DNA of 64,000 nt from Bacteriovoracaceae bacterium (GCA_048270185.1 JBLWTJ010000003.1:64001-128000), one strand, 5' to 3'; shown: positions 24,979-42,101, counted from the stretch's first letter. Notes: generated by a model from the sequence alone, not told the origin. Numbers and translations are program-made.

Positions 24979-27900
24979 GAATCTTATTGAATTATCTATT
25001 CGCAATCGTGTTACTGTTGTTCTCTTATTCTTACTGATTGCACTCTTATCAGTTTTTAGTTTAAAAACTGCACGAATCGATGCAATTCCAGATATAGGTG
25101 AAAATCAGCAAATCGTCTTCACTGATTGGCCTGGCCGATCACCAAAGGATATCGAAGAGCAAATTACTTATCCTTTAAGTGTTATGCTACAGGGGATACC
25201 TGGCGTTAAGAATATTCGCGGGACATCTGCTTTTGGTTTTTCTACAATTTATGTCATCTTTAATGATGATATCGACTTTTATTGGTCTCGTTCACGAGTC
25301 CTAGAGAAGCTAACGAGTGCTCGAAATGAACTTCCAACAGGTGTTAATCCTTCGATGGGGCCAGATGCAACAGGGCTAGGTCAAGTGTATATGTATACGC
25401 TTGAGAATACAGCTAATAGTGCTAAGCCATTATCTCTTGAAGAATTAAGAACTCTGCAAGACTTCTATGTACGCTATCTTCTTCAGAGTGTTGAAGGGGT
25501 AAGTGAAGTTGCAAGCATTGGCGGCTTTGTTAAAGAATATCAAATTGATGTGGATCCAAATAAGCTCATCGCATACGACACTCATTTAACGGCCATTATT
25601 TCGGCCATTCAAAATAGCAATATCGATGTGGGTGCTGAAGTTATTGAAGACGGAGACCGTGAATTCGTTGTTCGTGGAAAGGGCTTCTTTAAGTCCATTG
25701 CAGATATTGAAAATGTTGTCGTCGCTGTTAAGAATAAGACTCCAATTCGCATTAAGGATATAGCCTCAGTTGGCATGGGGCCTGCCTTTAGGAGAGGGGC
25801 CCTCGATAAGAATGGTGAAGAAGCTGTCGGCGGAATCGTTACCATGCGTTTCGGAGAGAACCCGAAAGTTGTAATTGATAATGTTAAGGCTAAGTTAGAT
25901 AGTATAAGACAAGGTCTTCCAAAAGATGTCGAACTTGTCAGTTTCTATGATCGTACAGAGGTAATTGAAAGAACAATTGGAACAGTTTATTCTGCACTCT
26001 TTCAAGAGATCATTATTACAGTTGTCGTTATCCTCTTATTTTTACTACACTTTAAATCTTCAATTCTTGTCTCGCTAACTCTACCTTTTGGGGTTGGGAT
26101 TAGTTTTATCTTAATGAAGTTTCTAGGCATTGATTCAAATGTAATGAGCTTATCTGGACTTGTTATTGCCATTGGTTCAATGGTTGATATGGGTATTATC
26201 ATGACTGAGAATATCTATTCAAGTCTAGCCGAAGAAGGACGTGAATTATCAAAATCAGAAAGAATTCAAACAATTATTAAAGCTGCTAGAGAAGTAGGAC
26301 CTGCGATTCTTACGGCCGTTTCTACTACGATTGTTACTTTTCTACCTGTTTTTGGCCTAGAAGGGAGTGAGGGGAAATTATTTGGACCTCTTGCATGGGC
26401 AAAGACTCTTGCTATGTTTGGCTCAGTAGTTGTTGCTATTATTCTTGTTCCGGCCTTAAGTACTTTCTTTTTAAAAGGTGAACTTAAGCCAATTGAGAAG
26501 AATCCTGTCAGTCGTAAAATTGTTGGAACATACCAACCCGTGCTTTCTTGGTTATTAGAGCATCGAAAGTTCTTTGCTATTTTTCCTACAATAATTCTAC
26601 TTCTTGGTTTTATCTCTTATACTCAGCTAGGTAAAGAATTTATGCCTTCACTGAATGAAGGAGAAATTCTCTATATGCCAGTAACTACTGCAGATGTCGG
26701 TATGACGAAGGCCCGCGAGCTTCTTGCATACACAGATGAGATGTTAAAGGATCATCCTCTCGTTGCAAATGTCGTTGGTAAACTAGGTCGAGCAGAAACA
26801 GCTCTTGATCCAGCTCCTGTTGCGATGTTTGAAACAGTTGTAAAACTTGTACCTCAAGAGGAGTGGCCAAGTGGAATGTCGATTTACGATATTATGCAAG
26901 AGCTTGATGCTCACCTTCAGGTTCCTGGCTTGGTCAACGCTTGGTTGTTTCCTATCGAGAATCGAATTGCCATGATTTCAACTGGAATTAAAACTCAAGT
27001 AGGGGTTAAGGTTTTTGGAGATGATCTAAATAAGCTTGAAAAAATTAGTCAGGAAATAGGTAAGGTCTTAGAAGGTATTAAAGGTTCGAGTGGTGTTTAT
27101 GCTCAGCAAATAACAGGAAAGCCTTATATTGAGTTTGACATTGATCGCGTGGCCGCTAGTCGATATGGGATTAATACCGGAACAATTAATAAGATCCTTC
27201 AAACTGCAGTTGGCGGAATGACTATCGGCCAGTTCTATGATGGAAGGAAGCGTTTTCCTATTCGCGTTCGTTATAAGAAAGAATTGCGTGATCGAATTGA
27301 TGAGTTAAAGAAAGTTCTAGTTCCAAGTCCGCTTGGACAGCATATTCCACTAGAGCAATTAGCTAGAGTTGAAATTGTGACTGGCCCTGCAATGATTCAG
27401 TCTGAAGATGGCCTTCTAAGAAATCTCGTTCTCTTAAACGTTCAGGGACGTGATCTTATTGGATTTGTTGAAGAAGCAAAGAAGGCAGTTGAAGAAAAAG
27501 TTGAATTACCTAAGGGGTATTCACTCTCTTGGGCCGGTCAATATGAGAACCAAGTACGTTCTAATAAGAGACTGATGATTCTGGTACCTATTGCTCTAAT
27601 CATTAATTTAATCATCATATACTTTGGTATCAAGAATTTAAGAAATGCTGCAATTGTTTTTAGTGCAGTTCCTATTGCATTTGCAGGAGGTCTTATATTG
27701 CTATGGATTGGTGGCTTTAATACATCTGTTGCGGTTTGGGTTGGCTTTATTGCTCTCTTTGGAATTGCCGTTGATGATGGGGTCGTGATGATGACCTATC
27801 TTCAAGAAGAATTTAAAAAGCATGCACCCACTAATTGGAGCGAGCTTAAAGAAGTCATTATAAGCGCTGGAAGTCGTAGGATTAGACCACTTGTAATGAC

Positions 27901-28087
27901 AACGACAACAACTGTTGTGGCCCTCATTCCTATCATGTGGTCAACAAGTACTGGTAGTGAAGTAATGAAGCCAATGGCCATCCCAACTCTTGGCGGTATG
28001 CTTGTTGAACTAATTACATTATTTGTTGTACCTATTACATACTCATACTTTGAACAAAAGAGAATTGAAGGAGAATCTAATGAATAA
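24971..28087 (+). CDS. cusA: CusA/CzcA heavy-metal RND efflux transporter
   Basis: DAIPDIGENQQIV, GPDATGLG, GKEFMPSLNEGEILYMP, DPAP. Confidence 0.95.
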   Translation: MIKNLIELSIRNRVTVVLLFLLIALLSVFSLKTARIDAIPDIGENQQIVFTDWPGRSPKDIEEQITYPLSVMLQGIPGVKNIRGTSAFGFSTIYVIFNDDIDFYWSRSRVLEKLTSARNELPTGVNPSMGPDATGLGQVYMYTLENTANSAKPLSLEELRTLQDFYVRYLLQSVEGVSEVASIGGFVKEYQIDVDPNKLIAYDTHLTAIISAIQNSNIDVGAEVIEDGDREFVVRGKGFFKSIADIENVVVAVKNKTPIRIKDIASVGMGPAFRRGALDKNGEEAVGGIVTMRFGENPKVVIDNVKAKLDSIRQGLPKDVELVSFYDRTEVIERTIGTVYSALFQEIIITVVVILLFLLHFKSSILVSLTLPFGVGISFILMKFLGIDSNVMSLSGLVIAIGSMVDMGIIMTENIYSSLAEEGRELSKSERIQTIIKAAREVGPAILTAVSTTIVTFLPVFGLEGSEGKLFGPLAWAKTLAMFGSVVVAIILVPALSTFFLKGELKPIEKNPVSRKIVGTYQPVLSWLLEHRKFFAIFPTIILLLGFISYTQLGKEFMPSLNEGEILYMPVTTADVGMTKARELLAYTDEMLKDHPLVANVVGKLGRAETALDPAPVAMFETVVKLVPQEEWPSGMSIYDIMQELDAHLQVPGLVNAWLFPIENRIAMISTGIKTQVGVKVFGDDLNKLEKISQEIGKVLEGIKGSSGVYAQQITGKPYIEFDIDRVAASRYGINTGTINKILQTAVGGMTIGQFYDGRKRFPIRVRYKKELRDRIDELKKVLVPSPLGQHIPLEQLARVEIVTGPAMIQSEDGLLRNLVLLNVQGRDLIGFVEEAKKAVEEKVELPKGYSLSWAGQYENQVRSNKRLMILVPIALIINLIIIYFGIKNLRNAAIVFSAVPIAFAGGLILLWIGGFNTSVAVWVGFIALFGIAVDDGVVMMTYLQEEFKKHAPTNWSELKEVIISAGSRRIRPLVMTTTTTVVALIPIMWSTSTGSEVMKPMAIPTLGGMLVELITLFVVPITYSYFEQKRIEGESNE

Positions 28088-28553
28088 AATTATTTTAATT
28101 TCACTTTTTACACTTCTAACTTTTGCTAATGAAAGAATTAGCTTAGAAGCATCTAAGAAAACTGAAATTATTAAGATGTTGGAAGTGAATGAGCAACTTC
28201 ATAGTGCTTTCTTTGATTATGATGCTAAGAAAGTTGAAGAATCGGCAAAAGCTCTATCTGAATCCATTGGTACTATCTCAACACCTGAAGTTAAGAAACT
28301 TTTAAAATACTCACAAATGAAGCTTAAGGATATAAAAGCAAGCAATAGTGAAAGTGCTAATAAGCAAAAGTATCATATCGTTTCAATGGCGCTAATTCAT
28401 ATCGTAAATAAATATGAAGTTGGTAAGTATAACGCTTATTCTTGTCCGATGGTGAAGCAGAAGTGGGTTCAAAACTCAGCTAAGCAAGATAAGGTCCACA
28501 ATCCATATGCAGCAAATATGCCTCATTGTGGACAAAAAGATACGAACTTCTAA
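28080..28553 (+). CDS. DUF3347-like periplasmic metal-binding protein; start 28080
   Basis: Signal peptide; YSCPM...W...NPY..MPHCG motif typical of cus-associated proteins; RBS GGAG. Confidence 0.75.
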   Translation: MNKIILISLFTLLTFANERISLEASKKTEIIKMLEVNEQLHSAFFDYDAKKVEESAKALSESIGTISTPEVKKLLKYSQMKLKDIKASNSESANKQKYHIVSMALIHIVNKYEVGKYNAYSCPMVKQKWVQNSAKQDKVHNPYAANMPHCGQKDTNF

Positions 28554-29066
28554 TTACTTCAAATAATCTGTTACGGCCGCTCCAAATATGCTTGGGAAGG
28601 CGATGATCACAGTACGCTTAAAAGCAAGAGTTGGATCGGTCATGACAGGGAATTTATCAATAAGAAAGAGAATAAAGACAACACTTGAAGTTGTAATCAA
28701 ATAGATGGCAAAGATTCTCTTGATAAACTCAGCGACATTTCCCTTAAGCTTAAATCGGTAGAAGTTAAAGTAGACAAAACAAGTCACGATAACGATTGAA
28801 GATGCCAGTAGGTAATAAATATTATCAAATTTTAGTGAAACACTTAAATTCCAAACTTCTTCAGTAAAGCAAAGAGGTGAGGCAACGAGAAAGGCCCCAA
28901 CAAAGATCTGTGAAATATCACGTAAGCGAAGCTCAACCATAAGAGGGTTGATAACATGGCCCATAGGTTTTCCTGAATCATCGAGGAAGGTAACAACTTC
29001 TTTTAAGTAGCCATTGATACGCTTGATTTCTGTATGAGTGTTTTTTAAGCCTTTGAATACGTCCAT
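28554..29066 (-). CDS. DUF2391-like integral membrane protein
   Basis: RDISQIFVGA, TEEVWNL, FPSIFGAAVTD. Confidence 0.75.
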   Translation of the reverse strand: MDVFKGLKNTHTEIKRINGYLKEVVTFLDDSGKPMGHVINPLMVELRLRDISQIFVGAFLVASPLCFTEEVWNLSVSLKFDNIYYLLASSIVIVTCFVYFNFYRFKLKGNVAEFIKRIFAIYLITTSSVVFILFLIDKFPVMTDPTLAFKRTVIIAFPSIFGAAVTDYLK

Positions 29067-29144: not shown

Positions 29145-30041
29145 TTAGAATAAGTTAATTGTTGCAGAGAATCCAATATTAGTTTTCTTAACATCTGCAT
29201 CATCAGCTAAGAATTGGATATTTGGGTAAAGGTAGATATCTCTTGATACAGAAATTCCGATACCGATAGATTGATACTCGTATCTTCTCTTAAGGTCTGA
29301 GTTACTTGCTCCTCTAACTCTTCTATAGTTAAAGTAACCAAATACAGTTCTGAAAGAGAAAGTATCATTGAAAGTATACTCAAGCATTGGATATAGTCCA
29401 AGAGAGAAACGTGTAAGGCCACTGGCCACTGGAGTTTCATCTTTGTACATATAGTAGCTATAATCTACAACACCACCAAGAGTAAGACCTGTCTTACCAA
29501 TATTGGCCATCATATATTGTTGAAGAGTTGCAACACCGCTAATTTCAGCATCTTTGTATGAGTCAGAAGTCCCAAAAGTATAAGTTGCAGATGAGATTGT
29601 TTGGAAAACACCAACTTTGTAAACTCTTGAGTAACTTAGGTATGGATCTGGAACATCAGAGTCTGGGTTACTGAATGGCTTTGTAGCACCCATTCCAGCT
29701 CCAAAAGAGATAGAGTCATTCTTAGTGAAGCGGTAGCGACCTGAAACATCAAGTCCTAGGTAAGTCGCAGTTTCAACTTCTGGGTCACCCGAGATATTTG
29801 GTCTTTCATCACCGAATGGGTCATCAAGAGCACCACCGTTGTAACCAAGTCCAATACTCATACTTAGTGGAGACTTTGAACCTGACTCAGCTCTCATTCT
29901 CGCGTTCGTAATTTCATTATCGATGTCATTTTTCTTTTCTGTTGAGCTCTTCTTTGTTTCTTGTGCATGAACACTTGTCATTGCAAGAGTGAGAAGTAGC
30001 ATCAACGTTTTTGCGCTTTTAAAATTCATTTTCATAATCAC
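29145..30041 (-). CDS. Outer-membrane beta-barrel protein of unknown function, paralogue of 38659..39600
   Basis: Signal peptide; amphipathic strands; C-terminal Phe; YNGGALD..ERPNI and RDI...PNI.F.A.D blocks shared with 38659. Confidence 0.7.
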   Translation of the reverse strand: MIMKMNFKSAKTLMLLLTLAMTSVHAQETKKSSTEKKNDIDNEITNARMRAESGSKSPLSMSIGLGYNGGALDDPFGDERPNISGDPEVETATYLGLDVSGRYRFTKNDSISFGAGMGATKPFSNPDSDVPDPYLSYSRVYKVGVFQTISSATYTFGTSDSYKDAEISGVATLQQYMMANIGKTGLTLGGVVDYSYYMYKDETPVASGLTRFSLGLYPMLEYTFNDTFSFRTVFGYFNYRRVRGASNSDLKRRYEYQSIGIGISVSRDIYLYPNIQFLADDADVKKTNIGFSATINLF

Positions 30042-30360
30042 TCCATGTGTAAATATTCTGAGCCAATATTGTCTTAACTATTAGATGAAAGAGCAAATTT
30101 TTTCTTAAGTTTTAAGTACTTTCAACAAAAGGTATTTTTGCTTTATGCGATATTGTTTACTCCTTAAATGATAGTGGGTGGATTATTAAATTTTTTTAAA
30201 ATTAAGAATGAACTTTTTGTAGCTGAAGTACGTGAAGTCATTTTGTGGGCAATAGTGTTTTATTCATTATATTTATATTCTAATTTTCATTGATGATTAT
30301 TAATAAGTAGATAGTTAGGTTGTTTAACGATGTTAATATAAGTTACAGGTGCAGTATTAA

Positions 30361-30378
30361 AGTTTGACTTATCAAACT
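30361..30378. promoter_or_regulatory. Palindromic operator candidate AGTTTGA-CTTA-TCAAACT overlapping a TTGACT -35 element
   Basis: Perfect 7-4-7 inverted repeat; TTGACT-17 nt-TATTTA promoter geometry; twin of 7237-7252. Confidence 0.6.
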
Positions 30379-30433
30379 CGTTCAGATATTTATTCCCTAC
30401 AAATTAAATACAACTCAATATTAGGAGAATAAA

Positions 30434-30955
30434 ATGTTTAAAAAATCACTCGTACTACTAGCTACATTACTAACTGCTTCAACTTTTGCTAACACTGACC
30501 TAGTTCTTGAAGGTGAGAGATGGCTAGCAAGTCACAAAGGTTATGTTTGTGCAGCATTTACTGATTACACAGCTGCTCCTGCATCACACGCAGATCTAAA
30601 TGTAAAATTCGAAAAACTATCAACTGACTACACTCTTGATAATATTCTTATCAAAGCAACTTTTGAAAATGTTGATGGTGTTGAGTGCTCATACTCTTCA
30701 ATCCTATTTGCAGACAATGCTGCTTCAACAATCGTACTTGTTGACTCAAGAGCCTTCTCTAAAGAAGTTGCTTCAGCTGATTGTTCAGAAGGAAAAACAA
30801 TTCTTGATGATCAACTAGCTGATAATGATTACCTATACTGGGGACACCCTCACCACGCAACAATAATGGTTCCTGCTGCAGGTGCTGCTGATATTTGTGG
30901 GGCAGGTGCAACTCATATCGGAATTGATTTTATGGTTTCAGGTAGAGTTAAATAA
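30434..30955 (+). CDS. Secreted four-cysteine protein with an HPHH cluster, paralogue of 4232..4735
   Basis: Signal peptide; RBS AGGAG; GYVC, YTAAP, GVECSY blocks. Confidence 0.8.
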   Translation: MFKKSLVLLATLLTASTFANTDLVLEGERWLASHKGYVCAAFTDYTAAPASHADLNVKFEKLSTDYTLDNILIKATFENVDGVECSYSSILFADNAASTIVLVDSRAFSKEVASADCSEGKTILDDQLADNDYLYWGHPHHATIMVPAAGAADICGAGATHIGIDFMVSGRVK

Positions 30956-30979
30956 TTTTACCAAATCCTTGATATAAAG

Positions 30980-31008
30980 GCAGGACCGTCAAACGTCCTG
31001 CTTTTTTT
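30980..31008 (+). terminator. Intrinsic terminator inside the siderophore locus
   Basis: GCAGGAC-loop-GTCCTGC followed by T7. Confidence 0.75.
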
Positions 31009-31025
31009 GTTTTAGGCACTTTGTA

Positions 31026-32291
31026 ATGATGAGAAAGATTCTAAAAATTCACCGTATACTTGGACTATTCTTGGCCTTGAATTTTCTATTATTAGGCCTT
31101 ACTGGTGTAGTTCTTATTTGGCGTCATGAGCTTTCGGATAGACCACTCTCTATACAACAAGGCCAATTCGTTTCTGAGAAATCATCTCTTGTGAAAATTG
31201 AAAACTATCTAGCTTCAGAGTTTTCAAATAAGAAAATTCTTTCAATTTTTAAAGGAGATGATGAAGATCTTCATGCCCGTGTTACAGATCTTGGTGTTGT
31301 GAAGTTTAAAGGTGCAACACGTCTACGCTTTGATCTCTCTGGTGAAGTCTTAGAGAAACAATTAATTAAGAAAGACTCACTACTTGATACAATCCTTAAA
31401 CTTCATAGAGAACTCCTATTTGGTGGTAAGGGAAAAATATTAGTTGGTATCCTTGGTGTCTTCTTTTTATTCGCGCTTATCACTGGTGCTGTTATTGCAG
31501 GAAAGTTCTATCGCAATGTTAAAAAGATGAATAATCGAATTCTTCAAGGAAGAATACATAAGATTATTGGAGTTAAAACGTTCACTTGGTTGTTCATTGT
31601 GACTTTCACGGGGGCCATGCTTGCCTTTAATAGCACATTAATTGGGTTGTTCTTAAGAGAGAATGTTCGTTCCCAAAATTCATTTGGTAATGTTGTCGAA
31701 AATGCTAAGTATATTAAAGCTTCTCAGGTCTTTGAAATTCTTCATGAGAAATTACCAGAGCTTGAGTATGACTTTATTTCATTTCCAGATAATGAATTTT
31801 CTGTGCCAAATCACTTTGTTGTTCTTATGGAGAGTGAGACAAGTCACAAGATTGCCTATATCAATGCCATTAGTGGTGAGTTTGTAAAACTTGTTTCTCT
31901 GCCTTGGTATTTAGAACTACTTATTCTTTCTGAGCCTCTTCATTTCGGTGATTATGGAGGAGTTATATTAAAAATTATCTGGTCGATCCTTGGCCTACTT
32001 GCATCCTTTATTCCACTAAGTGGATTAATTATTTTTGGATATCGTAAGAAATTTTTAAATACTAATGAAACAAAAGATAATGGGGAGAGTCTTAGAGATT
32101 TTAATATCGATCTTGTCGAGACTTTTATTCCAGCTATTTTTATCTTTGCCATTTTCCTTATAGAGGATGGATATAAAGCTATATTAAGTGGTTTATTCTT
32201 TATTTTCTTAGTATATTCGTGGCGTAATTTTCTCGGTTTCTTAGTTTCGCCTTTCAGAATTGGTACTAAGAAAGCGAGGATTCATGAATAA
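31026..32291 (+). CDS. PepSY-associated TM helix protein (FoxB-like ferrisiderophore utilisation)
   Basis: KIHRILGL...LTG, KLHRELL, RIHKIIG...FTG, PLHFGDYGG. Confidence 0.85.
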   Translation: MMRKILKIHRILGLFLALNFLLLGLTGVVLIWRHELSDRPLSIQQGQFVSEKSSLVKIENYLASEFSNKKILSIFKGDDEDLHARVTDLGVVKFKGATRLRFDLSGEVLEKQLIKKDSLLDTILKLHRELLFGGKGKILVGILGVFFLFALITGAVIAGKFYRNVKKMNNRILQGRIHKIIGVKTFTWLFIVTFTGAMLAFNSTLIGLFLRENVRSQNSFGNVVENAKYIKASQVFEILHEKLPELEYDFISFPDNEFSVPNHFVVLMESETSHKIAYINAISGEFVKLVSLPWYLELLILSEPLHFGDYGGVILKIIWSILGLLASFIPLSGLIIFGYRKKFLNTNETKDNGESLRDFNIDLVETFIPAIFIFAIFLIEDGYKAILSGLFFIFLVYSWRNFLGFLVSPFRIGTKKARIHE

Positions 32292-33438
32292 ATTCTCTAA
32301 AGCAATCTCGCTACTATGCTTGTTCTTTGGTGCTTCCCAAATGATATTACTAGGGCTCATTCCAAAAGTTGCGAGTGTCACTTTACTTCCTATTTCAACA
32401 GTTTTGATTATTTATGGTTTATCGATTTTTATCTTCCTCTTTATGACTAGATTTTGGAGTCACAGGTTTTCATGCATAAGACCATCTTGGATTTATCGAA
32501 TTGGGTTATGGGGAATCTTTAGCTCTTTTGTATTTCTTCTTGCTGCGTTTACTGTTCAAGATCCAAAAGCCGCCATTATTTTCTTTATCCTAGCTCGTCT
32601 TACTCATGCGTCAACTGCTAGTTCAATTATGCCATTTTCTCAGACGGTCAAAATTGAAACTCGCCATGGAGTGCATCAAGGAGTCTTAGATACGACGATT
32701 TTTCTCAATATTGGGCGACTTCTAGGTCTTGCTATTGGAGGCTTCTTTTCTTTTAATTCAATCACAAGCCTTCTTGTTTTAATGGGAATGATTATTTTGA
32801 GTGCTCTACTTAGGTATGAAAGTAGTGAGGTTAAAATGAATCTTAGTGCCAATGAAGATATGTTGCCACAGGGTATCGGTGCATATTTTCTAATACCACT
32901 TTGTTTCACAATTATTGTTTCGTTCTTTCATGCTTCAATTGTTGATATTATCTCAAACCTTGTTGATGGTGTTACGAAGCAATCGGCCCTAATTTATTCG
33001 AGTTTAGGTGCTGCCTCAGTTGCTATTGTACTTATTCAATTAGTTTTGAAGAAGCTAGACCTTATGAATTCACCAATAACAATCATGTTGGGTTCACTAA
33101 GTTATATTACAAGTTTTGTGGCATTTATCAATATATCTAATGTCGCAATGCTTGGGGTGTTCCTAATTCTATTTTCAATCGGTGTTGCGATTCTTCCTAT
33201 CTCATACATGGGCCATTTTTACTTTAGGTTCAATATGATCGCTAAACAAATTATTGCTGGGAAAATTAGTTTTTATCAAACACTTGGAAATGCTCTTGGT
33301 GCGCTAGTCGCAGGTCTTATTATTAAGGCACAAATTCAAAACTATATTCTTTTCATATTCATTATTCTTGTTTTGATAGGCACGACGGTTGTTGTTAATA
33401 ACATCAGTGAAAAAAATAATGAGGTTGTGCATGAATAA
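32284..33438 (+). CDS. MFS transporter (ShiF-like, siderophore associated); start 32284
   Basis: About 12 TM segments; ILARLTH; position directly before iucA. Confidence 0.7.
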   Translation: MNKFSKAISLLCLFFGASQMILLGLIPKVASVTLLPISTVLIIYGLSIFIFLFMTRFWSHRFSCIRPSWIYRIGLWGIFSSFVFLLAAFTVQDPKAAIIFFILARLTHASTASSIMPFSQTVKIETRHGVHQGVLDTTIFLNIGRLLGLAIGGFFSFNSITSLLVLMGMIILSALLRYESSEVKMNLSANEDMLPQGIGAYFLIPLCFTIIVSFFHASIVDIISNLVDGVTKQSALIYSSLGAASVAIVLIQLVLKKLDLMNSPITIMLGSLSYITSFVAFINISNVAMLGVFLILFSIGVAILPISYMGHFYFRFNMIAKQIIAGKISFYQTLGNALGALVAGLIIKAQIQNYILFIFIILVLIGTTVVVNNISEKNNEVVHE

Positions 33439-35641
33439 GGCAAATCGATATAGTTTAAAACCATTGCTAAATTCTTTTATTAGAGATTTTGGTAATGAAT
33501 TCGATCTTCAAATAACAAATAAAAGCTTAGTTATAAATATTGGTTCTTCTTTATTAAAATTTGGAATTGAAAAGTATTCTGCCCTAGGTTCACATTATTA
33601 TAATGGTGAAATTTCTTTTAATGGTGTAGATATTTCTTTTGAAGAATCACTTAAAAAACTAACTTCCTTGTTTAGTGAATGTGATGAAACATTTATTCCA
33701 AATATTATTAATTCCAGAGATAATATAGCGCTAATTTTAGCACAACATAATGAGCAGACTCTTAAAATAGATGACTATTTATCGAGCGAACAATTACTAC
33801 TTCTAGGACATCCATTTCATCCATACCCAAAGTGTAAGCTTGGAATGACTGTAGAAGATATGAGAAGCTATGCTCCAGAATTTCAAAACTCATTCAAATT
33901 GGTTTGGCTTAGTACAAATCTGAAAATGCTTTTTAGTGAATGCGATAAATCTGAACTTCAAGAGAAGCTTTTATCAGTCGCTGAATATGATTTGGCCGAG
34001 ATTAATGCGAATATGACTTATATTCCAATGCATCCATGGCAGTGGAATAATCTAAGAGAACGTGAAGATATTAAGCTCCTTCTTAGTCGTGAGACGATTC
34101 TAGAAATTGGAGAGGGAAGAAATGATTGGTACGCTCTTTCATCTCTTCGATCTATCTATAGTAAAGGAGCACCTTTTCAGCTTAAGTTCTCAATGGACGT
34201 GAAACTGACAAATTCTATTCGTCATCTAACTCCAATGGAAGCTATTCGCGGTAAACAAATGGAGACTGTCTTTACAAATGAAGGCGTGGCAAGCTTTAAT
34301 GATAAGTTTAAGATTTTAAATGAGGCATATTACGCTGCTCTTCTCGATAGCGAAGGTAATGAAATCATTGAATCGACTTTTCAACTAAGAGAGTCCTTTG
34401 ATAACAAAGACTGCTTACTACTTGCGAGTCTTGCTGAAATAAACCCATATACAGGTTCAACTCATCTAAGAGAAAGTATTGAAAATTCTGTCGAAATTAA
34501 TAAGCATCTAGCTCGTAAGAATTGGTTTGATGCCTTTTTAAAAAATGTTATTGGGCCTTTTCTTGACCTCGCAGACGAATACGGTGTTCTTCTTGGCGCC
34601 CACATGCAAAATATCATCCTAAAGATGGAAGATGGCCTGCCTATAGGAGTTATCTACCGCGATACACAAGGTACAGGCTTTACGTTAAAGGGCCTTGAGC
34701 AATACGGTGATAAGTATGATTTTATCAAAGATAGTAAGGGCAATATATTAGATCAAAATGATGTTAATAAAGTCTATACATACTATTTAATTATTAACTC
34801 CGTTTTCAATACGATCTGCGCTCTAGCAGATGGAAATTCGAAAGATGAAATTTATCATCTTTCACAATTTAGAAATTATATTTATTCAAGAAGAGATCAT
34901 TCAAGCTTCATTCATTACTTACTTGAAAGTGAAACATATTTTCAAAAAGGTAATTTCAGATGTTGTGTGACAAATATTAATGAAAATACAGTCGCTAATC
35001 CTTGGAATATCTATAACAAAATTGATAATCCAATTGTTAAGTACCTAAGAAGGCCACGTCAGTATGATGGTATTCTGTACGAAACAAGAACGGCCTCTGG
35101 TCATGATCTTCGTCTTCGTGCCCTTAATTTAGAAAGTGATATGGAAGTCTTTCACAAGTGGCACAATAAACCATTTGTTTATGAGTTCTGGGAAATGAAT
35201 AAACCTCTTAATGAGCTTCGTGGGTATGTTGAAGGCCTAAAGAAATCTCCTTACCAACTTCCAATAATTGTTGATATCGATGGAGAACAAGCGGGTTATT
35301 TTGAGGTTTACTGGGCCTATGATGATCGAATTGCTCCATATTGTAATGCTTCTTTATATGATCGTGGTATTCATATTCTTATTGGAGAAGAAAAGTATCT
35401 TAGAACGAAGGCCGTACTAGAATCAATCTATCATTTAACAAAATTCTTATTTGAAGATGAAAGTCGAACTCAAAAAGTTTGGGGTGAGCCTCGTGAAGAT
35501 AATAAGAAGGTTTTAAAGATCGCTGAGTATTTACCCGGTTGGAGTCATGTTGGTGTCTTTGACTTTCCTCATAAGAGATCAAATCTTTTAGAAGCGGAGC
35601 GCACGAGATTTTACGCAGAGGTAGGTGACAATGAATACTAG
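33431..35641 (+). CDS. iucA: IucA-type NIS synthetase fused to a C-terminal IucB/AlcB-type N-hydroxy-amine acyltransferase; start 33431
   Basis: SEQLLLLGHPFHPYPK, PMHPWQ, SSLRS, KLTNSIR, AHMQN, YRD; C-terminal GYFEVYWA.DD, DRGIH, GEP..DN, FDFPHKR. Confidence 0.88.
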   Translation: MNKANRYSLKPLLNSFIRDFGNEFDLQITNKSLVINIGSSLLKFGIEKYSALGSHYYNGEISFNGVDISFEESLKKLTSLFSECDETFIPNIINSRDNIALILAQHNEQTLKIDDYLSSEQLLLLGHPFHPYPKCKLGMTVEDMRSYAPEFQNSFKLVWLSTNLKMLFSECDKSELQEKLLSVAEYDLAEINANMTYIPMHPWQWNNLREREDIKLLLSRETILEIGEGRNDWYALSSLRSIYSKGAPFQLKFSMDVKLTNSIRHLTPMEAIRGKQMETVFTNEGVASFNDKFKILNEAYYAALLDSEGNEIIESTFQLRESFDNKDCLLLASLAEINPYTGSTHLRESIENSVEINKHLARKNWFDAFLKNVIGPFLDLADEYGVLLGAHMQNIILKMEDGLPIGVIYRDTQGTGFTLKGLEQYGDKYDFIKDSKGNILDQNDVNKVYTYYLIINSVFNTICALADGNSKDEIYHLSQFRNYIYSRRDHSSFIHYLLESETYFQKGNFRCCVTNINENTVANPWNIYNKIDNPIVKYLRRPRQYDGILYETRTASGHDLRLRALNLESDMEVFHKWHNKPFVYEFWEMNKPLNELRGYVEGLKKSPYQLPIIVDIDGEQAGYFEVYWAYDDRIAPYCNASLYDRGIHILIGEEKYLRTKAVLESIYHLTKFLFEDESRTQKVWGEPREDNKKVLKIAEYLPGWSHVGVFDFPHKRSNLLEAERTRFYAEVGDNEY

Positions 35642-37382
35642 GGCCATCTTCTTTAATAAACATAAAAGCTTAATTATTAAGGCCATTGAAGAACTTCAAT
35701 TTGAAGAGCTTTTTACTATTGAAGAGATTAATGGTTCCTATAAGCTTAGATGTAGTGATGAGATTTCATATATATTTGATGGACGAATTAGTGTTTGGGG
35801 AAACCTGCAAATCCAAGCTGTAAGCTTTAAGAAGATTGTTAGTGGGGAAGAAGTTTTCGAGTACACTTTGGCCGATTTCTTCTACGAGACGCAAGATTTG
35901 ACAAAAATGACAGATGAAACGCTTGCACAATTCATTGAAGAAGGTAATCAGACAATATGTGGTGATATGCTTCAACACCAATCTCTTCTAGATTTAAACC
36001 TTTCTGAGATTTCAGGGCTTAACTTTAAAAAAGTTGATCAAATTCTTACGGGACACCCTAAGATCATAATGAATAAGGGCCGTATTGGTTGGGGCAAGGA
36101 TGAGCTAGAGAAGTATGCTCCTGAGGCCAGACAAAGTTATAAGCTCCACTGGTGCGCTATTAAGAAAGACTGTCTTGATTTTGGCCTTGATCTAAGTAAG
36201 CTATCTTTTACTGATATTCTAAAGGACTCTTTAAGTGATAGTGAAATTGTCTACGCTAAGAATATTATTGCTAAGGCAGGTGAAAATTTTGAAGACTATC
36301 TAATCGTGCCAATTCATCCCTGGCAGTGGAGTAAGTACATAAGTATACAATTTGCTGCTTTAATATATCGTCGTTCAATAATTTCAATAGGACGAATCGG
36401 TAATGATTACACTCCACAGGTATCAATTCGTACACTGTCGTCATGTTGTAATAAGAGCAAATACGATGTGAAATTGGCCATTTCAATCCTTAATACCTCT
36501 AGTGTGAGAGGAATTCCTCAAAAGTATATTAAGAATGGGTATCTGCTAAGTGAGAAGATTGAGCAAGTTATTATACAAGATGATTTACTCTCACAAAAAG
36601 TTGGAGTCCTAAAAGAGGTTGCAGCTGTTAGTTGTCCGGCGCCAGAGTTTAATCGTATTACAGGTGGTTCATATCGCTATAAAGAATTACTTGGTTGTGT
36701 ATGGCGAGAGAATGTTGAAGCTAAAATAGATGAAGATGAAATTGCAGTTCCAACGGCGGCCCTCTTACTAACAAAAAATAACGAGTCGCTAATCGGAAAG
36801 TATATTGAACAATCAAAGCTTTCAATTGAGCAGTGGTTAAAAGAATATTTTAAAGCTGTAGTGATTCCACTTTATCACTTACAGGCCGAGCATGGGTTAG
36901 GACTTGTGGCCCATGGACAAAATACAATTTTAGTTCTGAGAGAGGGGATCCCTCAGAAATTAATTATAAAAGACTTTCATGGTGATTTTAGAATAACGAC
37001 AGATTCAAAACACCTTGATGTTGATTTTGGAGTCGAACTCGATCAGTTACCTCCAGAGTATTTAATCCATGATCTTATCACTGGTCATTTTATTACTCTC
37101 TTGCGCTACCTATCTCGAGTTGTTGAAGAAACTCTAAGCTTTAAAGAAGTCGACTTTTATCACTTGATGGGAGAAGTGGTAGAAGCCTACGAAGAAGAAC
37201 ATATTGTTAATCCAAAGATTAGCTTACTTCGAAAAGACTTTGAAAAGGTCTTGGTAAATTCTGTGCGTTTTCAAGCTGGTTACAGTGAAACAGGGCAAAG
37301 ACTTAAACCAATGCTTGGAAGAAATATTAAAAACCCATTACTGTCGAATCAAACTAGAGGAAAAAATGCAAAATACTTATGA
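35631..37382 (+). CDS. iucC: IucC-type NIS siderophore synthetase
   Basis: GHPKIIMNKGRIGW, YAPE, PIHPWQW, SIRT, LNTSSVRG, WRE, AHGQN, KDFHGD. Confidence 0.9.
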   Translation: MNTRAIFFNKHKSLIIKAIEELQFEELFTIEEINGSYKLRCSDEISYIFDGRISVWGNLQIQAVSFKKIVSGEEVFEYTLADFFYETQDLTKMTDETLAQFIEEGNQTICGDMLQHQSLLDLNLSEISGLNFKKVDQILTGHPKIIMNKGRIGWGKDELEKYAPEARQSYKLHWCAIKKDCLDFGLDLSKLSFTDILKDSLSDSEIVYAKNIIAKAGENFEDYLIVPIHPWQWSKYISIQFAALIYRRSIISIGRIGNDYTPQVSIRTLSSCCNKSKYDVKLAISILNTSSVRGIPQKYIKNGYLLSEKIEQVIIQDDLLSQKVGVLKEVAAVSCPAPEFNRITGGSYRYKELLGCVWRENVEAKIDEDEIAVPTAALLLTKNNESLIGKYIEQSKLSIEQWLKEYFKAVVIPLYHLQAEHGLGLVAHGQNTILVLREGIPQKLIIKDFHGDFRITTDSKHLDVDFGVELDQLPPEYLIHDLITGHFITLLRYLSRVVEETLSFKEVDFYHLMGEVVEAYEEEHIVNPKISLLRKDFEKVLVNSVRFQAGYSETGQRLKPMLGRNIKNPLLSNQTRGKNAKYL

Positions 37383-38637
37383 TATCGTTGGGATCGGATT
37401 GGGGCCTTTTAACCTAAGCTTAGCTGCTTTATTAAACCCTATAAGTTCTGTTAAAAAGAAATTCTTAGATAATAAACCTGAATTTAGTTGGCACCCTGAG
37501 CTTATGTTTGGTGATGCGATGATGCAAACTTCATTTCTAAAAGATCTAGTTACACCTGTGGACCCAAAGAGTTCTTTTAGTTTCTTAAATTACTTAGTTG
37601 AAAATGGACAATTCTATCACTTCTTAAATACTGACCGTAAGGCGATTAATCGCTATGAGTTTCAAGACTATTGTAAGTGGGTATCAAAACAACTCGGCAA
37701 GGATATCAACTTTAATTCAAGAGTAATTGATGTCAAACATGACGGTGAAAAATTTGAAGTTATAAAAGAAGATGGTAGCTACTTTACAAAGAATCTCTGT
37801 GTTGCTTCAGGGCCGACAAAGAATATCCCTGATTGTGCTGAAGATTATCTTTCAAATACATTATTTCATGCAAAATCTAAGTATATGAAGAATTTAGATC
37901 TTACTGGAAAACGCGTCGTTGTCATCGGTGGGGGACAAACTGGTGTTGAAACTTTTAGAAATGCGTTAAACGGTATGTGGGGAAGAGTTGAAAATGTAAA
38001 ACTTCTTTCTGGAAGACATAATCTTCAACCTCTTGATGAAGCTCCATTTACAAATGAAGTTTTCACTCCGGATTTCGTTCTAAACTTCCACTCACTTCCT
38101 CAAGAGCAGAAAGACTCTTATACACAAAGTCAACTTCTTGCAAGTGATGGGAACACTCCTCAGTACCTACAGGAGATGTATAACGAGTTATATCTCGATC
38201 GTTTCTATCTTAAGAAACTTCCTGAGTATACAATTGCTCCGATGCGTTGGTTACAAGCAGTTGAAAAACAAGATGAAGTTTACCAACTATCAATTGAAAA
38301 TCTTTTAAATAAAGATATTGAAAAGATCGAAGCAGACGTTGTTATTCTTGCTACTGGTTTTAAAAGTGTATTACCAAGCTTCCTCGATGGATTAAGTGAA
38401 AATATTGCTAAGGATGCACAAGGGCGAATCGTGGTTAACCAAGACTATAGCCTACAGACAAATATCACAAATGGAAAAATCTATACAATGAACTTTAGCC
38501 GTCATGGGCACGGGATTGCAGACCCTCAAACGAGTCTTATGTCTTGGCGTTCGGCCATGATTGCTAATGATCTCATTGGTACCACACAATATACAACAAT
38601 GAATTCTGGAGAAAGCTTTTTAAGCTTCTTTAACTAA
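37366..38637 (+). CDS. iucD: L-lysine N6-monooxygenase (IucD/SidA family); start 37366
   Basis: GIGLGPFNLSLAAL, FSWHP, MQTSFLKDLVT, GGGQTG, ILATG, HGIADP. Confidence 0.92.
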   Translation: MQNTYDIVGIGLGPFNLSLAALLNPISSVKKKFLDNKPEFSWHPELMFGDAMMQTSFLKDLVTPVDPKSSFSFLNYLVENGQFYHFLNTDRKAINRYEFQDYCKWVSKQLGKDINFNSRVIDVKHDGEKFEVIKEDGSYFTKNLCVASGPTKNIPDCAEDYLSNTLFHAKSKYMKNLDLTGKRVVVIGGGQTGVETFRNALNGMWGRVENVKLLSGRHNLQPLDEAPFTNEVFTPDFVLNFHSLPQEQKDSYTQSQLLASDGNTPQYLQEMYNELYLDRFYLKKLPEYTIAPMRWLQAVEKQDEVYQLSIENLLNKDIEKIEADVVILATGFKSVLPSFLDGLSENIAKDAQGRIVVNQDYSLQTNITNGKIYTMNFSRHGHGIADPQTSLMSWRSAMIANDLIGTTQYTTMNSGESFLSFFN

Positions 38638-38658
38638 AACAGAGTAAACGGAGAGAAA

Positions 38659-39600
38659 ATGAAACTAGTAATTTTGATGCTTATTTCTTCTCTGACATTT
38701 GCAGCGACAGATAAAGCAGCAAAGTCCCAAGGAGAAGTTAAAAACAAATCATTTAACACAAAAGAAGAAGTTCTTGATAACCCAACTTTAAAGACTCTAT
38801 CAGGCTCTTTAAAAAGATGGTCTTTCTATTCTTCATTTAAGTACAATGCTGGAGCACTTGATAATCTAAATGACGCTGAAAGACCGAATATCAGAAATGC
38901 AGGGAATACAACTTCACTTACAAATTTTACAGGAAACCTTGGGGTTAAGTATCGTCTGTCTAAGTCAGATAACTTATCTCTACAAGTTGGGCTCGAGAAG
39001 AAAGCACCTTTTCACGATAATGTTGATTCAGATAATACAACAGTTCAATATGAGCTTGATACTTATGGAGATAGTTTAAATATAGATAACCCGGTTCTAA
39101 GTTACTTTAAAACATACTATCTTGCAGGAATTCAAAACGTAACATTTCTTCAATATCAATATGCGACTTGGGACTATTACCAAGATTTAGGGATTAATTC
39201 AGTCTTTAATTTAAGTCATTCTCTTGCGTATAAAGTATGGAAAGCTGCTTATGTTGCTGTTTCTGCAAATGCGACACAGTACTTCTATGATAAGAATACC
39301 ATCTCATATAATGGGTTTGAGATTGCTGGACGTGATAGACAGGTTAATCGTTCTTTCTCATTTAGTTTAGCAGGGGAGCTATACTTCTCTCGCTCACTGT
39401 CTCTTAGGATGATCACTGACCTATACACGGCCGATCATTACAGAAGTGATCGAATTAAAGAAAAAGTATTACAACAAACAGTTGCTATGACTTACTTCTT
39501 TACACGTGATATTTCGATTGCACCAAATATTCGTTTTATTGCAGAAGATATCAGAGCTGAGCGTACAAATGTAGGTCTTACAATGAATGTAAACCTATAG
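38659..39600 (+). CDS. Outer-membrane beta-barrel protein of unknown function, last gene of the siderophore operon
   Basis: Signal peptide; amphipathic strands; 313 aa, too short for a TonB-dependent receptor; paralogue of 29145..30041. Confidence 0.7.
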   Translation: MKLVILMLISSLTFAATDKAAKSQGEVKNKSFNTKEEVLDNPTLKTLSGSLKRWSFYSSFKYNAGALDNLNDAERPNIRNAGNTTSLTNFTGNLGVKYRLSKSDNLSLQVGLEKKAPFHDNVDSDNTTVQYELDTYGDSLNIDNPVLSYFKTYYLAGIQNVTFLQYQYATWDYYQDLGINSVFNLSHSLAYKVWKAAYVAVSANATQYFYDKNTISYNGFEIAGRDRQVNRSFSFSLAGELYFSRSLSLRMITDLYTADHYRSDRIKEKVLQQTVAMTYFFTRDISIAPNIRFIAEDIRAERTNVGLTMNVNL

Positions 39601-39607
39601 AAAATAT

Positions 39608-39633
39608 AAAGGCCTCATTTAAGAGGCCTTTTT
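39608..39633. terminator. Bidirectional intrinsic terminator
   Basis: AAAGGCCTC-ATTTAA-GAGGCCTTT-TT between convergent genes. Confidence 0.8.
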
Positions 39634-39634
39634 A

Positions 39635-40654
39635 TTATGAAATTTCAAAATCATCGTGTCCTGGAATATCTTCTGGATGAGGTTCAACGATATCGACTCC
39701 TAGGTGGAGAATCCTTGTACCAGCATCACAATTAGGCCTAACATTCTTTCCAATGACAACACCTTCACGATTAGCACAGATTACTTCTTTAACTTGTCCA
39801 AAGACATCATAGACTTTAGCGATAACTTGTCCCTTTTCAACTTTATCCGCAAGTTTTGGTAGCACATCCACGATTCCACCTTTTGTCGAATAGATCCAAT
39901 ATGATTTATCACAGACGATCGTATCGGTAATGAGATCATGTACTTCACCTTCAATCATTTTAAAGTAGCGTAGGGTATTTAGAATTCCGTCAAGTGTCTC
40001 GTCAATGAGAGCGTGTTGAAATGCATTGGGATTTCCTATTTCAACTGTGATGGCATGAATGCCATTGTCATTGGCCCACGATCTTAATGTCCCTTCTTCA
40101 TCGTATTTTTGAACGATGATTTGTGGGTTCTGTAGGAAGGCAAGAGTTCTTGTTTCTTCTTTCTCTAGATCTGCTCGTAAGTAGAGACTGTTAACTCGGC
40201 CGTGGCTCGCTGTGTGTAGATCCAGTAGATAGTCGAATTTCGAGACAATTTTTTGAGTGAAGTAGTGAGCATAGATATTACTGGTATTGCCTTGAAGCTT
40301 TCCAGGCATAATTCTATTTAGATCCACGTTATCAGAGAAGTAGCGTTGGTTGGCAAGGTAGCCTGGAACGTTACTAATTGGAACCATAATTAGAGTACCA
40401 TTTAATTTTTTTGGATCAATCTCTTCAATTAGCTTGAAGATTGTTGATATTCCATTAAGCTCATTCCCGTGTATCGCTGCTGTGATACCAAAAACGGGAC
40501 CTTCACCTGAACCTTTAACAATTATTAAAGGTACTCGCCATGGAACTCCTAGAGAATTATCTGAGAGATGAATTTGCAGTCGGTGAACCTCTCCCTTTGC
40601 AAATGAGTTTAGGTCTATTTCTTCAGTTGTTTTTATTATTTGAATATCGCCCAT
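39635..40654 (-). CDS. Succinylglutamate desuccinylase/aspartoacylase family (M14) zinc deacylase
   Basis: HGNE, DLNR, DLH, VEIG; C-terminal barrel-sandwich region. Confidence 0.9.
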   Translation of the reverse strand: MGDIQIIKTTEEIDLNSFAKGEVHRLQIHLSDNSLGVPWRVPLIIVKGSGEGPVFGITAAIHGNELNGISTIFKLIEEIDPKKLNGTLIMVPISNVPGYLANQRYFSDNVDLNRIMPGKLQGNTSNIYAHYFTQKIVSKFDYLLDLHTASHGRVNSLYLRADLEKEETRTLAFLQNPQIIVQKYDEEGTLRSWANDNGIHAITVEIGNPNAFQHALIDETLDGILNTLRYFKMIEGEVHDLITDTIVCDKSYWIYSTKGGIVDVLPKLADKVEKGQVIAKVYDVFGQVKEVICANREGVVIGKNVRPNCDAGTRILHLGVDIVEPHPEDIPGHDDFEIS

Positions 40655-40667
40655 AATATTTACCTAA

Positions 40668-42101
40668 TTAAATCATAATCTCACTAAATAATGACTTATC
40701 ATTATCTAGGGATTGGAAGAGTTTACTTCTAAAAGTACCTTTCTTACTTGTTAGTTGTATTGCCATTTTATCAATTGCAACAATTGTTAAAATTGTTTGG
40801 ATATAGGCTTCAATAAGGTCATCTGTTCCAATACCAAGTGAATTAAAATCTTTTTGATCCATGAGCATAAGTCTTGACGTATCTGAGTCCCATTGGTTTT
40901 CACCTACTTTTACCGATAAGTTTGTCCCAAGAACATTCCAGCTATCTTCAGGGTACTTTGACTCAAGTGGTGTTCTTGCTCGTCTTGCATAAATTGCACA
41001 AGGCATGAAACCTTTCGGTGATGAATAAACCATCAGTCTTAGGTCGGCGATGTAAATATTTCCCTTCTTATTAGGAACAGTTCCGATATGAAAGAATTTA
41101 CCATGCTGACTAGTCGAACTCCATTCATAGTGACCAATTAAGCTTTGTACGATGAACTGATCGTATTGATAATCCATTTGCATGAAAGCATCGAGTTCTT
41201 CTTGATTCGTTATAGTAAAGACTCCTTGTCCTGCATTAGAATAAGGAATTTTAATAACGGCCTTGCCACCAAACTTTTGTACCCATAGTGGTATTTCTAG
41301 TTTTCCTACGTCTTTAATTGTTTCAGGAACTTGAATTTTTAAACCTGATTCAGCAATCTCTGAGTTGTAAAGTTCATAAGCTTTATTAGCGAGAAGTTTG
41401 TTACGTCCTCCAGAAAGACAAACAAGAGTTGAGTTATAGATAAAAGTTTTAGTTGTGGTAGGAATTCGATTCCACGGCTTTTGTGTAACATAACGAAATG
41501 CCGCACTAATAGGAACTTCTTTACCATTTTCTAATGTGATAATCATCACTCCATCTTCGAATCTTGTGTACTGCTCTTCTCCGTGAAAGTGGGGAACGAG
41601 ATAGACATCTTCACCTGTAAGATCTGCTAGTGTTGACGCATATCCAGAAGTTTCCATATAGTTCTTATCGTAGATTACTGCTAGTGCACCCTTAGGTAAT
41701 TTCTTTTTCTTCTTTTTTAAAGCGGGAAGGAATGAATTCTCAATAAGGAATTTATAACCACGATGTTCGTCTGAATCAGTTCTTGGTGGCATCGACTTTT
41801 GTCCTGATGGGCAAGAGTTTGTTTCGAGAACAACCATGCGACGATTACCTTGTTCAGTTGTAACATAGAATAGATCTGATCCCCCCCAGAAGAAGTGCTT
41901 ACATTCATAATTAAGAATTTCTCTCAGGGTATTTGTATCTATTTGTGGGTTTAGATGACTATATCTTTTAATAACTCTTTCGTGATCGAGATTTAGAAAG
42001 TGACTCACGAGAGGGTGTAGTTGAGAATTTAGTGCTTTTGGGTAGAAATGGTGCTCTTGTTCAAAATGATCAGGTTTAATGACCTCAATTCTTCTCTTCA
42101 A
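40668..42101 (-). CDS. Circularly permuted ATP-grasp ligase of unknown substrate
   Basis: GSD76...E93TN95SCP at the N-terminus; NKLLA, VIKIPYSNAGQGV, VQSLI, DLR, TNLS later; TTG start with GGAG RBS. Confidence 0.75.
   Translation of the reverse strand: MKRRIEVIKPDHFEQEHHFYPKALNSQLHPLVSHFLNLDHERVIKRYSHLNPQIDTNTLREILNYECKHFFWGGSDLFYVTTEQGNRRMVVLETNSCPSGQKSMPPRTDSDEHRGYKFLIENSFLPALKKKKKKLPKGALAVIYDKNYMETSGYASTLADLTGEDVYLVPHFHGEEQYTRFEDGVMIITLENGKEVPISAAFRYVTQKPWNRIPTTTKTFIYNSTLVCLSGGRNKLLANKAYELYNSEIAESGLKIQVPETIKDVGKLEIPLWVQKFGGKAVIKIPYSNAGQGVFTITNQEELDAFMQMDYQYDQFIVQSLIGHYEWSSTSQHGKFFHIGTVPNKKGNIYIADLRLMVYSSPKGFMPCAIYARRARTPLESKYPEDSWNVLGTNLSVKVGENQWDSDTSRLMLMDQKDFNSLGIGTDDLIEAYIQTILTIVAIDKMAIQLTSKKGTFRSKLFQSLDNDKSLFSEIMI

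Follow-up and report, generated by a model that had tools for sequence, protein, structure and literature searches.

A plug-less outer-membrane barrel in the receptor position of an aerobactin-type siderophore cluster in Bacteriovoracaceae

How does an iron-loaded siderophore return to the cell when its biosynthetic operon carries no gene for a TonB-dependent receptor (TBDR)? In diderm bacteria, textbook siderophore uptake requires such a receptor. The 64,000-nucleotide stretch analysed here (Bacteriovoracaceae bacterium, JBLWTJ010000003.1:64001-128000; hereafter the window, which is C3:64001-128000 of the source genome, G000) contains an aerobactin-type cluster on its plus strand (window 30434-39600), in which iucD is followed by a gene for an outer-membrane barrel of 313 amino acids (aa), P0001, here called barrel B. 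In related genomes this barrel and the TBDRs linked to iuc genes are mutually exclusive. We propose, with a probability of about one half, that the ferrisiderophore enters through the outer membrane by way of barrel B and would then be reduced in the periplasm by a PepSY_TM protein of the same operon. The source organism, a marine predatory bacterium, is a relative of Halobacteriovorax, since the nearest database relative of barrel B, 88% identical, is a protein of Halobacteriovorax sp.; this agrees with the mention of Bdellovibrionota in the original prediction.

Barrel B, its operon and its family

Gene calls were taken from a listing of open reading frames (ORFs) and from Pfam and NCBIfam scans. 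The order on the plus strand is P0003, PepSY_TM, a transporter like those of the major facilitator superfamily (MFS), an IucA/IucB fusion, IucC, IucD and barrel B. The aerobactin-type enzyme set is complete in this one operon (PF04183 twice, PF13523 and PF13434), and the product is called aerobactin-type by that enzyme set only. The fusion protein, with 750 aa (33389-35641), joins an IucA-type nonribosomal peptide synthetase-independent siderophore (NIS) synthetase to an IucB-type N-acyltransferase (IucA_IucC, E 1.8e-45; FhuF, 1.6e-16; Acetyltransf_8, 4.2e-38); the next gene encodes an IucC-type NIS synthetase of 585 aa (35625-37382; IucA_IucC, 6.6e-64; FhuF, 1.3e-24), and the third an IucD-type amine N-monooxygenase listed at 450 aa (37285-38637; Lys_Orn_oxgnase, 1.1e-100), whose best NCBIfam match reached 214.7 bits against a cut-off of 700. 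The true start of iucD is probably later than listed, because the listed ORF overlaps iucC by 98 nt and the orthologues have 421-430 aa.

A gap of 21 nt separates the iucD stop from the barrel B gene (38659-39600), the last of the operon, which ends at a bidirectional intrinsic terminator (39608-39631; 9-bp stem with five GC pairs, then a T-run). The short spacing and the shared terminator indicate that the barrel is co-transcribed with the iuc genes. The ORF and domain scans agree with the original prediction on the gene order from the MFS gene through iucD to the 313-aa ORF at 21 nt, before the terminator, as well as on the presence of a PepSY_TM protein and a secreted four-cysteine protein in the cluster. 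They agree also on the absence of TBDR, TonB and FhuBCD genes from the window: no match to a TBDR, TonB_C, ExbD, Peripla_BP_2 or FecCD was found within it, all such matches being on other contigs or beyond the window.

An AlphaFold2 model of barrel B, built from an alignment of 27 sequences (predicted local distance difference test, pLDDT, 83.9; predicted template-modelling score 0.76), comprises a signal peptide, a poorly predicted linker, a short helix at residues 42-48 and, by DSSP, twelve long strands. It shows no large periplasmic domain, and the conserved N-terminal helix may sit in the barrel lumen. The protein is far too small for a plug and 22 strands, as had been predicted, and it differs from an IutA-like TBDR in its length, in its 12 strands and in the lack of any match to PF07715 or PF00593. 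Foldseek, proposed earlier together with AlphaFold as a check, gave generic barrel similarity only (top FapF, E 1e-8, TM-score 0.5). The Foldseek-independent tool VIA placed the COG4313 channel 4rl8 on top (Z 16.7, 227 residues aligned, root-mean-square deviation 3.2), followed by FapF 5o65 (Z 16.5), KdgM 4pr7 (Z 15.8), autotransporter beta-domains (Z 14-15), NanC 2wjr (Z 14.4) and Tsx 1tlw (Z 12.0). All the top VIA matches are 12-stranded barrels, some of them substrate channels (COG4313, KdgM, NanC, Tsx) and others translocators (FapF, autotransporters). Sequence identity to these structures is 5-12%, and the assignment made from AlphaFold2, DSSP and VIA is to the fold class of 12-stranded outer-membrane barrels, not to a homologous family.

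Sequence searches gave no family name. Pfam had no match at E<=1 for P0001 and none above cut-off in 28 family members; the NCBIfam scan at E<=10, which included the LbtU model, had none for P0001, its paralogue P0002 and two relatives; and the barrel profile found nothing meaningful among PDB sequences. The ESM Atlas returned for P0001 only unnamed Bdellovibrionota clusters, with OmpG-like clusters lower in the list.

The wider barrel family comprises 227 representatives (50% clustering, E<=1e-3), and 156 stretches of it were confirmed by tblastn in species-representative genomes, 80 of which were kept as loci for a survey of gene neighbourhoods. Nearly all of these loci bear Bdellovibrionota labels, and they resemble P0002 more than P0001. 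Their neighbours are mixed, including M23 peptidase, serine hydroxymethyltransferase, ABC exporter, histidine kinase and penicillin amidase genes among others. Five of the 80 loci have a PepSY_TM fragment, found by Pfam scan, and a GCS2-like gene about 2-2.6 kb from the barrel (e.g. L047:5665-6129). In a FastTree phylogeny of 115 members the iuc-linked barrels are monophyletic with support 100; of the 32 rows in this clade, 30 carry the barrel B label, the other two being database representatives whose gene context is unknown. Twenty-four positions are conserved in at least 90% of this clade and rare in the remaining family, among them the helix motif P42/T43/K45/L47 and the aromatic residues F150, F163, Y198, Y242, Y279 and F280.

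Barrel and receptor in related genomes

The comparison covered 201 genomes from this taxonomic family. Orthologues of barrel B (44-89% identity, at least 248 bits; next-best matches at most 130 bits) occur in 22 of them, belonging to five genera. Barrel and IucC share a contig, about 2.6 kb apart, in 20 of these 22 genomes. The G141 contig breaks off within iucD, immediately 5' of the barrel, and in G164, an assembly of 550 contigs, barrel and IucC are on separate contigs. Conservation beside iuc genes, which the original prediction had put forward as a check, was thus found for 21 of the 22 orthologues.

IucA_IucC genes are present in 50 of the 201 genomes. Twenty-one of these have the barrel, 15 a TBDR that we call type 1 and 13 a TBDR of type 2, and the overlap is zero; the one genome left over, with neither the barrel nor either TBDR type (G178), is 73% complete. 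The two TBDR types are only distantly related to each other. Type 1 was found in 15 genomes of the whole set, all of them positive for IucA/C, and type 2 also in 15, of which 13 are positive. In 27 of the 28 TBDR genomes the receptor gene is within about 10 kb of IucC on the same contig. Some type-1 matches have in-frame stops near the start, which we attribute to an over-long start of the query ORF.

Gene maps were drawn for 20 iuc loci, 12 of them without the barrel. In nine of these 12 the slot after iucD holds an ORF of 689-732 aa, and three of the nine, with both types represented, were confirmed to have Plug and TonB_dep_Rec domains. In genus g61 the two barrel-less loci have their type-2 TBDR at a distance of about 10 kb, and the G076 locus, with a different gene order, has one at 4.4 kb. 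The reading of barrel B as a small protein in the receptor slot is supported by the sister genera, where a TBDR of about 700 aa follows iucD, and by the exclusivity in the 50 genomes. In an IucC tree of all 20 loci, made with IQ-TREE in a quick search, the two g61 clusters join the eight barrel clusters in one clade with support 96. Because g61, which carries the type-2 TBDR, appears nested among the barrel clusters (support 94, under the starring threshold), the tree needs at least two changes of state, with exclusivity kept at each; this is suggestive of more than one switch between barrel and TBDR, and is not a statistical result.

A search of the source genome for TBDR, tonB and exbBD genes, also proposed earlier, gave three TBDRs with a Plug domain, four TonB_C matches and four ExbD matches, all outside the window. 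Neither iuc-linked TBDR type was found in it or in any other barrel genome. When the TBDRs of eight further barrel genomes were compared by phmmer with nine iuc-adjacent references, the best score was 39 bits, against at least 528 within a type.

Two of the three TBDRs of the source genome are, judged from sequence, riboswitch-controlled vitamin receptors. One (C1:1258k) is behind an AdoCbl-II (adenosylcobalamin) riboswitch. Another (C1:499677-501704) was considered as the cognate receptor, as a homologue 37% identical to it adjoins iuc in G061 and G142. This candidate was dropped: a thiamin pyrophosphate (TPP) riboswitch lies directly 5' of this 676-693-aa TBDR both in the source genome (L003:5574-5686, 56 bits) and in G061 (L103:2182-2296, 58.7 bits), so the type is read as thiamin-related and its iuc adjacency is not taken as evidence for a siderophore. 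The third TBDR (C2:218k), beside a TonB gene, scored best with the TonB-hemin model, at 297.8 bits just under the cut-off of 316.85, and reached 84.5 with the siderophore-receptor model; we refer to it as heme-like.

The five closest relatives of the source genome have exactly three Plug matches each. In them two TBDR positions coincide with the orthologues of the thiamin-type and heme-like receptors, and the third scores as BtuB-type. The genome G051 (97% complete, 30 contigs) has the iuc genes, the barrel and TonB, and by both PF07715 and PF00593 a single TBDR, directly 5' of which is an AdoCbl-II riboswitch (36.3 bits, E 2e-5; the gathering score is 36.5). From one to three Plug domains per genome were counted in G000, G015, G106, G138, G146, G158, G051, G010, G074 and G059, and the few TBDRs examined in these predatory bacteria are mostly behind vitamin riboswitches.

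The third TBDR is part of a conserved module (L001:5433-8646; C2, about 217.4-220.6 kb), also present in L106, L108, L110, L113, L117, L120 and L123, of a TonB protein of about 190 aa, the heme-like TBDR of 650-680 aa and P0241. P0241 is a secreted protein of 160 aa with four cysteines and no family, for which the ESM Atlas gave no usable lead; homology to P0003, alike in size and cysteine count, was rejected (hhalign probability 1.4%). At L001:8705-9495 two adjacent ORFs, the first of 122 and the second of 117 aa, correspond to the N- and C-terminal halves of the methanethiol S-methyltransferase MddA and may be a split or frameshifted gene.

Other cluster proteins, operator and surroundings

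P0003 (30434-30955, plus strand) is a secreted protein of 173 aa, without a Pfam or NCBIfam family, for which 54 homologues were found. The cysteines C39, C85, C117 and C155 are invariant in the 31 that were aligned, and a WGHPHH motif is largely conserved. Its AlphaFold2 model (pLDDT 93.3) is a soluble 8-stranded barrel with weak, lipocalin-like fold matches (lipocalins, BcnB, ToxS): the best Foldseek E value was 7e-3 (DUF4847, beta-lactoglobulin), and the VIA Z of 7.4 to BcnB is in a range that the tool calls common. From the model, P0003 may be a lipocalin-like protein that binds a siderophore or a metal. It is present in barrel-type and TBDR-type clusters alike and so is not a specific partner of the barrel.

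The PepSY_TM inner-membrane protein has 421 aa (31026-32291, plus strand; PF03929, E 6.1e-35, 121.9 bits, cut-off 28.8). Its gene occurs in most clusters of both types, directly after the TBDR in type-1 clusters. It had no match at E<=0.01 by phmmer among PDB sequences, and by analogy it is a candidate periplasmic ferrisiderophore reductase of the FoxB/HiuB kind. The MFS-like transporter (32260-33438, plus strand, 392 aa) matches MFS_1 with E 3.5e-5 and 23.3 bits, under the Pfam cut-off of 33.4, and its homologues in related clusters score 54-90 bits; it is a candidate siderophore exporter, or else an importer or recycler. For the inner membrane, a single FecCD permease with a single Peripla_BP_2 protein, and a FeoB-like gene, are present in the source genome at places away from the cluster.

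A 16-bp palindrome, GTTTGA-N4-TCAAAC (GTTTGACTTATCAAAC, 30362-30377), lies 57 nt 5' of the P0003 gene. Seven strict copies exist in the source genome, against 1.2 expected from base composition, and six of the seven are intergenic. The other copies (window 7237-7252; C1:345775, C1:768985, C2:365191 and C3:177634) precede an imelysin gene (window 6101-7234), two di-haem cytochrome c peroxidase genes and a gene for monomeric isocitrate dehydrogenase with DUF6607. When up to one mismatch is allowed, 18 of 20 iuc loci, barrel-type and TBDR-type alike, have the palindrome, and where its position was checked it stands at the head of the cluster. It is a candidate non-canonical operator of an iron-responsive regulator of this lineage. 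The canonical Fur box was tried and rejected: the E. coli 19-mer matched at best 12-13 of 19 positions in 30042-30433, and in the upstream regions of ten P0003 orthologues it scored no better than shuffles. A terminator-like hairpin (30976-31005) lies between the P0003 and PepSY_TM genes.

Upstream, on the minus strand, is barrel A (P0002, 298 aa, 29145-30041; weak OMP_b-brl match, E 0.004), with a terminator beside it (29129-29105). This paralogue lies at the start of the span covered by the original prediction, which did not mention it. It is 26% identical to barrel B (E 6e-26), and by tblastn the source genome has only these two copies. Barrel A flanks the cluster in close relatives only (L094, L100, L101), groups in the family tree with relatives without iuc linkage (L039, L037), and is probably a general member of the Bdellovibrionota family, not a conserved part of the cluster. 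Just before it in window coordinates (24971-29066) are genes for a CusA/CzcA-type resistance-nodulation-division pump (1038 aa), a protein of the LIC13259/LIC11441 family, which takes its name from Leptospira proteins, and a membrane protein of the DUF2391 kind, and the last two genes stay beside barrel A in close relatives. On the 3' side of the cluster (39635-42490, minus strand) are an AstE/AspA-family deacylase, a 477-aa ORF without a family and a 91-aa PqqD-like protein. This group, which may be a small peptide-modification or amino-acid pathway, adjoins the cluster within the genus (L094, L100, L101) and not in other genera.

Candidate entry route and comparison with known systems

We propose that the cluster makes and re-uses a citrate-hydroxamate siderophore of the aerobactin type, and that the plug-less 12-stranded barrel B would replace the receptor and admit the iron-loaded siderophore to the periplasm. 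There the PepSY_TM protein, like FoxB and HiuB, would reduce Fe(III); the freed Fe(II) would cross the inner membrane, for example by the unlinked FeoB-like protein, and the MFS protein would export or recycle the ligand. Reduction, possibly with binding by the lipocalin-like four-cysteine protein, could serve as a sink and so maintain inward diffusion with no energy from TonB. Gene order, the fold class of the barrel, its positional swap with TBDRs, the mutual exclusivity and the lack of either iuc-linked TBDR type in barrel genomes are shown by the analysis. We infer the substrate, the direction of transport, the TonB independence, the reductive sink and the Feo step; for TonB independence the ground is only that barrel B has no plug, and TonB and ExbD exist in the genome. 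The original prediction had raised TonB-independent uptake through a dedicated channel, which the positional swap and the exclusivity support and which is weakened by TonB and ExbD and by the heme-like TBDR as a possible receptor. Its suggestion of periplasmic reduction by the PepSY_TM protein fits by analogy the published work on FoxB and HiuB. The proposed hand-off to the four-cysteine protein gained no support: P0003 belongs to TBDR-type clusters as well, and it resembles a small lipocalin-like ligand binder.

Several observations weigh against barrel B as the entry route. Because the genomes share ancestry, few evolutionary events lie behind the exclusivity. For a metal complex of about 600 Da the pore of a 12-stranded barrel is narrow, and the barrel-B clade ends in ...NL, against the usual terminal F of the family. 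None of the 80 wide-family loci has an Iuc, PepSY_TM, MFS or P0003 homologue within 10 kb (phmmer with the proteins of the window), so that the wider family does not appear to be tied to iron. The heme-like TBDR could be the real receptor, because it is overrepresented among barrel genomes (in 15 of the 22, compared with nine of the other 179; 24 of 201 in total), because its heme assignment rests on a hidden Markov model score under the curated cut-off, and because the FRAP/NPNL motif of heme receptors is present in one of eight heme-like TBDRs and absent from that of the source genome. The enrichment comes partly through shared ancestry. The palindrome, with one mismatch, is at the start of the heme-like TBDR in three of seven other barrel genomes, which fits iron regulation and does not separate heme from siderophore. 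Furthermore, barrel genomes hold unclassified TBDRs, two in G077, one each in G093 and G095, and two in G125, of which one is weakly scored and one (L116) matches none of the references.

One alternative is that barrel B is an exit duct for the new siderophore, working with the MFS exporter, and that the ferrisiderophore returns by a TBDR encoded elsewhere, for instance the heme-like receptor beside TonB. Co-transcription of the barrel with the biosynthesis genes and the MFS gene would suit this idea, as would the secretion barrel FapF and the autotransporter domains among the top fold matches, and the occurrence in barrel genomes of the heme-like TBDR and, at its start in three of seven, of the one-mismatch copy of the cluster palindrome. 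We nevertheless hold it to be unlikely: it leaves unexplained why barrel and iuc-linked TBDR do not co-occur in 49 genomes, it would deprive TBDR-type clusters of an exporter and barrel-type clusters of a linked importer, and the nearly complete G051 has no TBDR beyond the riboswitch-controlled, BtuB-like one. The heme-like TBDR is also present in seven genomes without an IucA_IucC match, out of the nine non-barrel genomes that carry it.

Import of another cargo would agree with the small pore class of a 12-stranded barrel; ferrous or ferric iron released at the surface (Francisella FupA, a paralogue of FslE, is reported to take up ferrous iron), ferric citrate, or the precursors citrate or lysine could be considered, and citrate would be the scaffold of a siderophore of the type suggested by the enzyme set. 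We give little credence to this reading, as the one-for-one swap with the TBDRs of siderophore clusters points to the same cargo, and the PepSY_TM protein would be without a periplasmic substrate if the complex stayed outside. It is improbable, too, that barrel B is one of the general porins in a housekeeping family of Bdellovibrionota, placed by chance at the end of the operon and with no specific role in iron. Such a porin would be in keeping with the size of the family, the lack of iuc homologues near the 80 loci and the general character of barrel A, but 21 of the 22 orthologues are directly after iucD in five genera, the barrel B clade is separate and has its own conserved residues, and the 21-nt spacing before the shared terminator indicates co-transcription.

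If barrel B is the entry route, a broader and more tentative claim, to which we give somewhat less than even chances, would be that plug-less 12-stranded barrels found only in Bdellovibrionota displaced TBDRs in a TonB-proficient lineage for the uptake of its own hydroxamate-citrate siderophore, with reductive trapping by PepSY_TM, not TonB, driving import. To our knowledge LbtU and FslE/FupA, from two pathogens, are the only characterised exceptions to the TBDR rule, and their mechanism is still unclear. Here the genomes with the barrel retain TonB for other receptors, and sister genera in which a TBDR still fills the corresponding slot offer a natural swap experiment with a built-in control. 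With this comparative system one can ask whether a channel, passive or otherwise energised, together with a periplasmic reductase suffices to acquire iron at high affinity, and which features would allow a 12-stranded pore to pass a metal chelate. The reading of barrel B as entry route also supplies one clade of a large, unnamed family of outer-membrane proteins in predatory bacteria with its first candidate function.

Full-text literature searches, whose coverage excluded subscription journals, gave no description of this cluster among the papers listed, as judged from titles or the opening of abstracts. Like the enterobacterial iucABCD-iutA locus, it has two IucA/IucC synthetases, an IucB-type and an IucD-type enzyme, and the receptor position directly after iucD; it differs in the fusion of iucA and iucB, in the 12-stranded barrel in place of the TBDR, and in the added PepSY_TM and lipocalin-like proteins. 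COG4313 Pput2725, KdgM/NanC, Tsx and FapF are of the same fold class as barrel B, none of their Pfam models matches it, and we know of none that serves as a siderophore channel. PF12097 (DUF3573), which we take to be the Pfam family of FslE and FupA, had no match over the cut-off in the source genome (best 9.4 bits, elsewhere). The model of the LbtU family of siderophore porins (NF033652, cut-off 90 bits) gave no hit for P0001 even at E<=10, and its best match in the source genome, also elsewhere, was 11.6 bits.

FoxB and HiuB are reported as periplasm-facing ferrisiderophore reductases, and FoxA-FoxB of Pseudomonas and HiuABC of Caulobacter are described as an outer-membrane entry protein with a PepSY_TM reductase, no siderophore ABC importer being needed. 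The type-1 clusters of the sister genera, with a TBDR and then PepSY_TM, have exactly this arrangement; the outer-membrane partner in the present cluster, unlike theirs, is not a TBDR.

According to published accounts, LbtU of Legionella pneumophila is a plug-less, TonB-independent outer-membrane siderophore receptor encoded beside an IucA/IucC-type operon; FslE and FupA/B of Francisella are non-TBDR outer-membrane proteins of siderophore uptake, FslE being encoded in the fsl operon; and both bacteria are described as lacking TonB (PMC5378763, PMC8891985). Barrel B is similar to LbtU in lacking a plug, in its place beside IucA/IucC-type genes and in size (313 aa, against 327 model positions in NF033652). 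However, the source genome has TonB and ExbD, and the cargo of LbtU is the polycarboxylate rhizoferrin, whereas that of barrel B would probably be a hydroxamate-citrate. With FslE it shares that it is not a TBDR and is encoded with an IucA/IucC-type synthetase (FslA in Francisella); FslE, of a family reported as unique to Francisella, has 509 aa, with a predicted 14-stranded barrel and a periplasmic domain of 152 residues, compared with the 12 strands of barrel B. Barrel B thus appears, from its sequence and genomic setting, to parallel LbtU and FslE in position and logic as a member of neither family.

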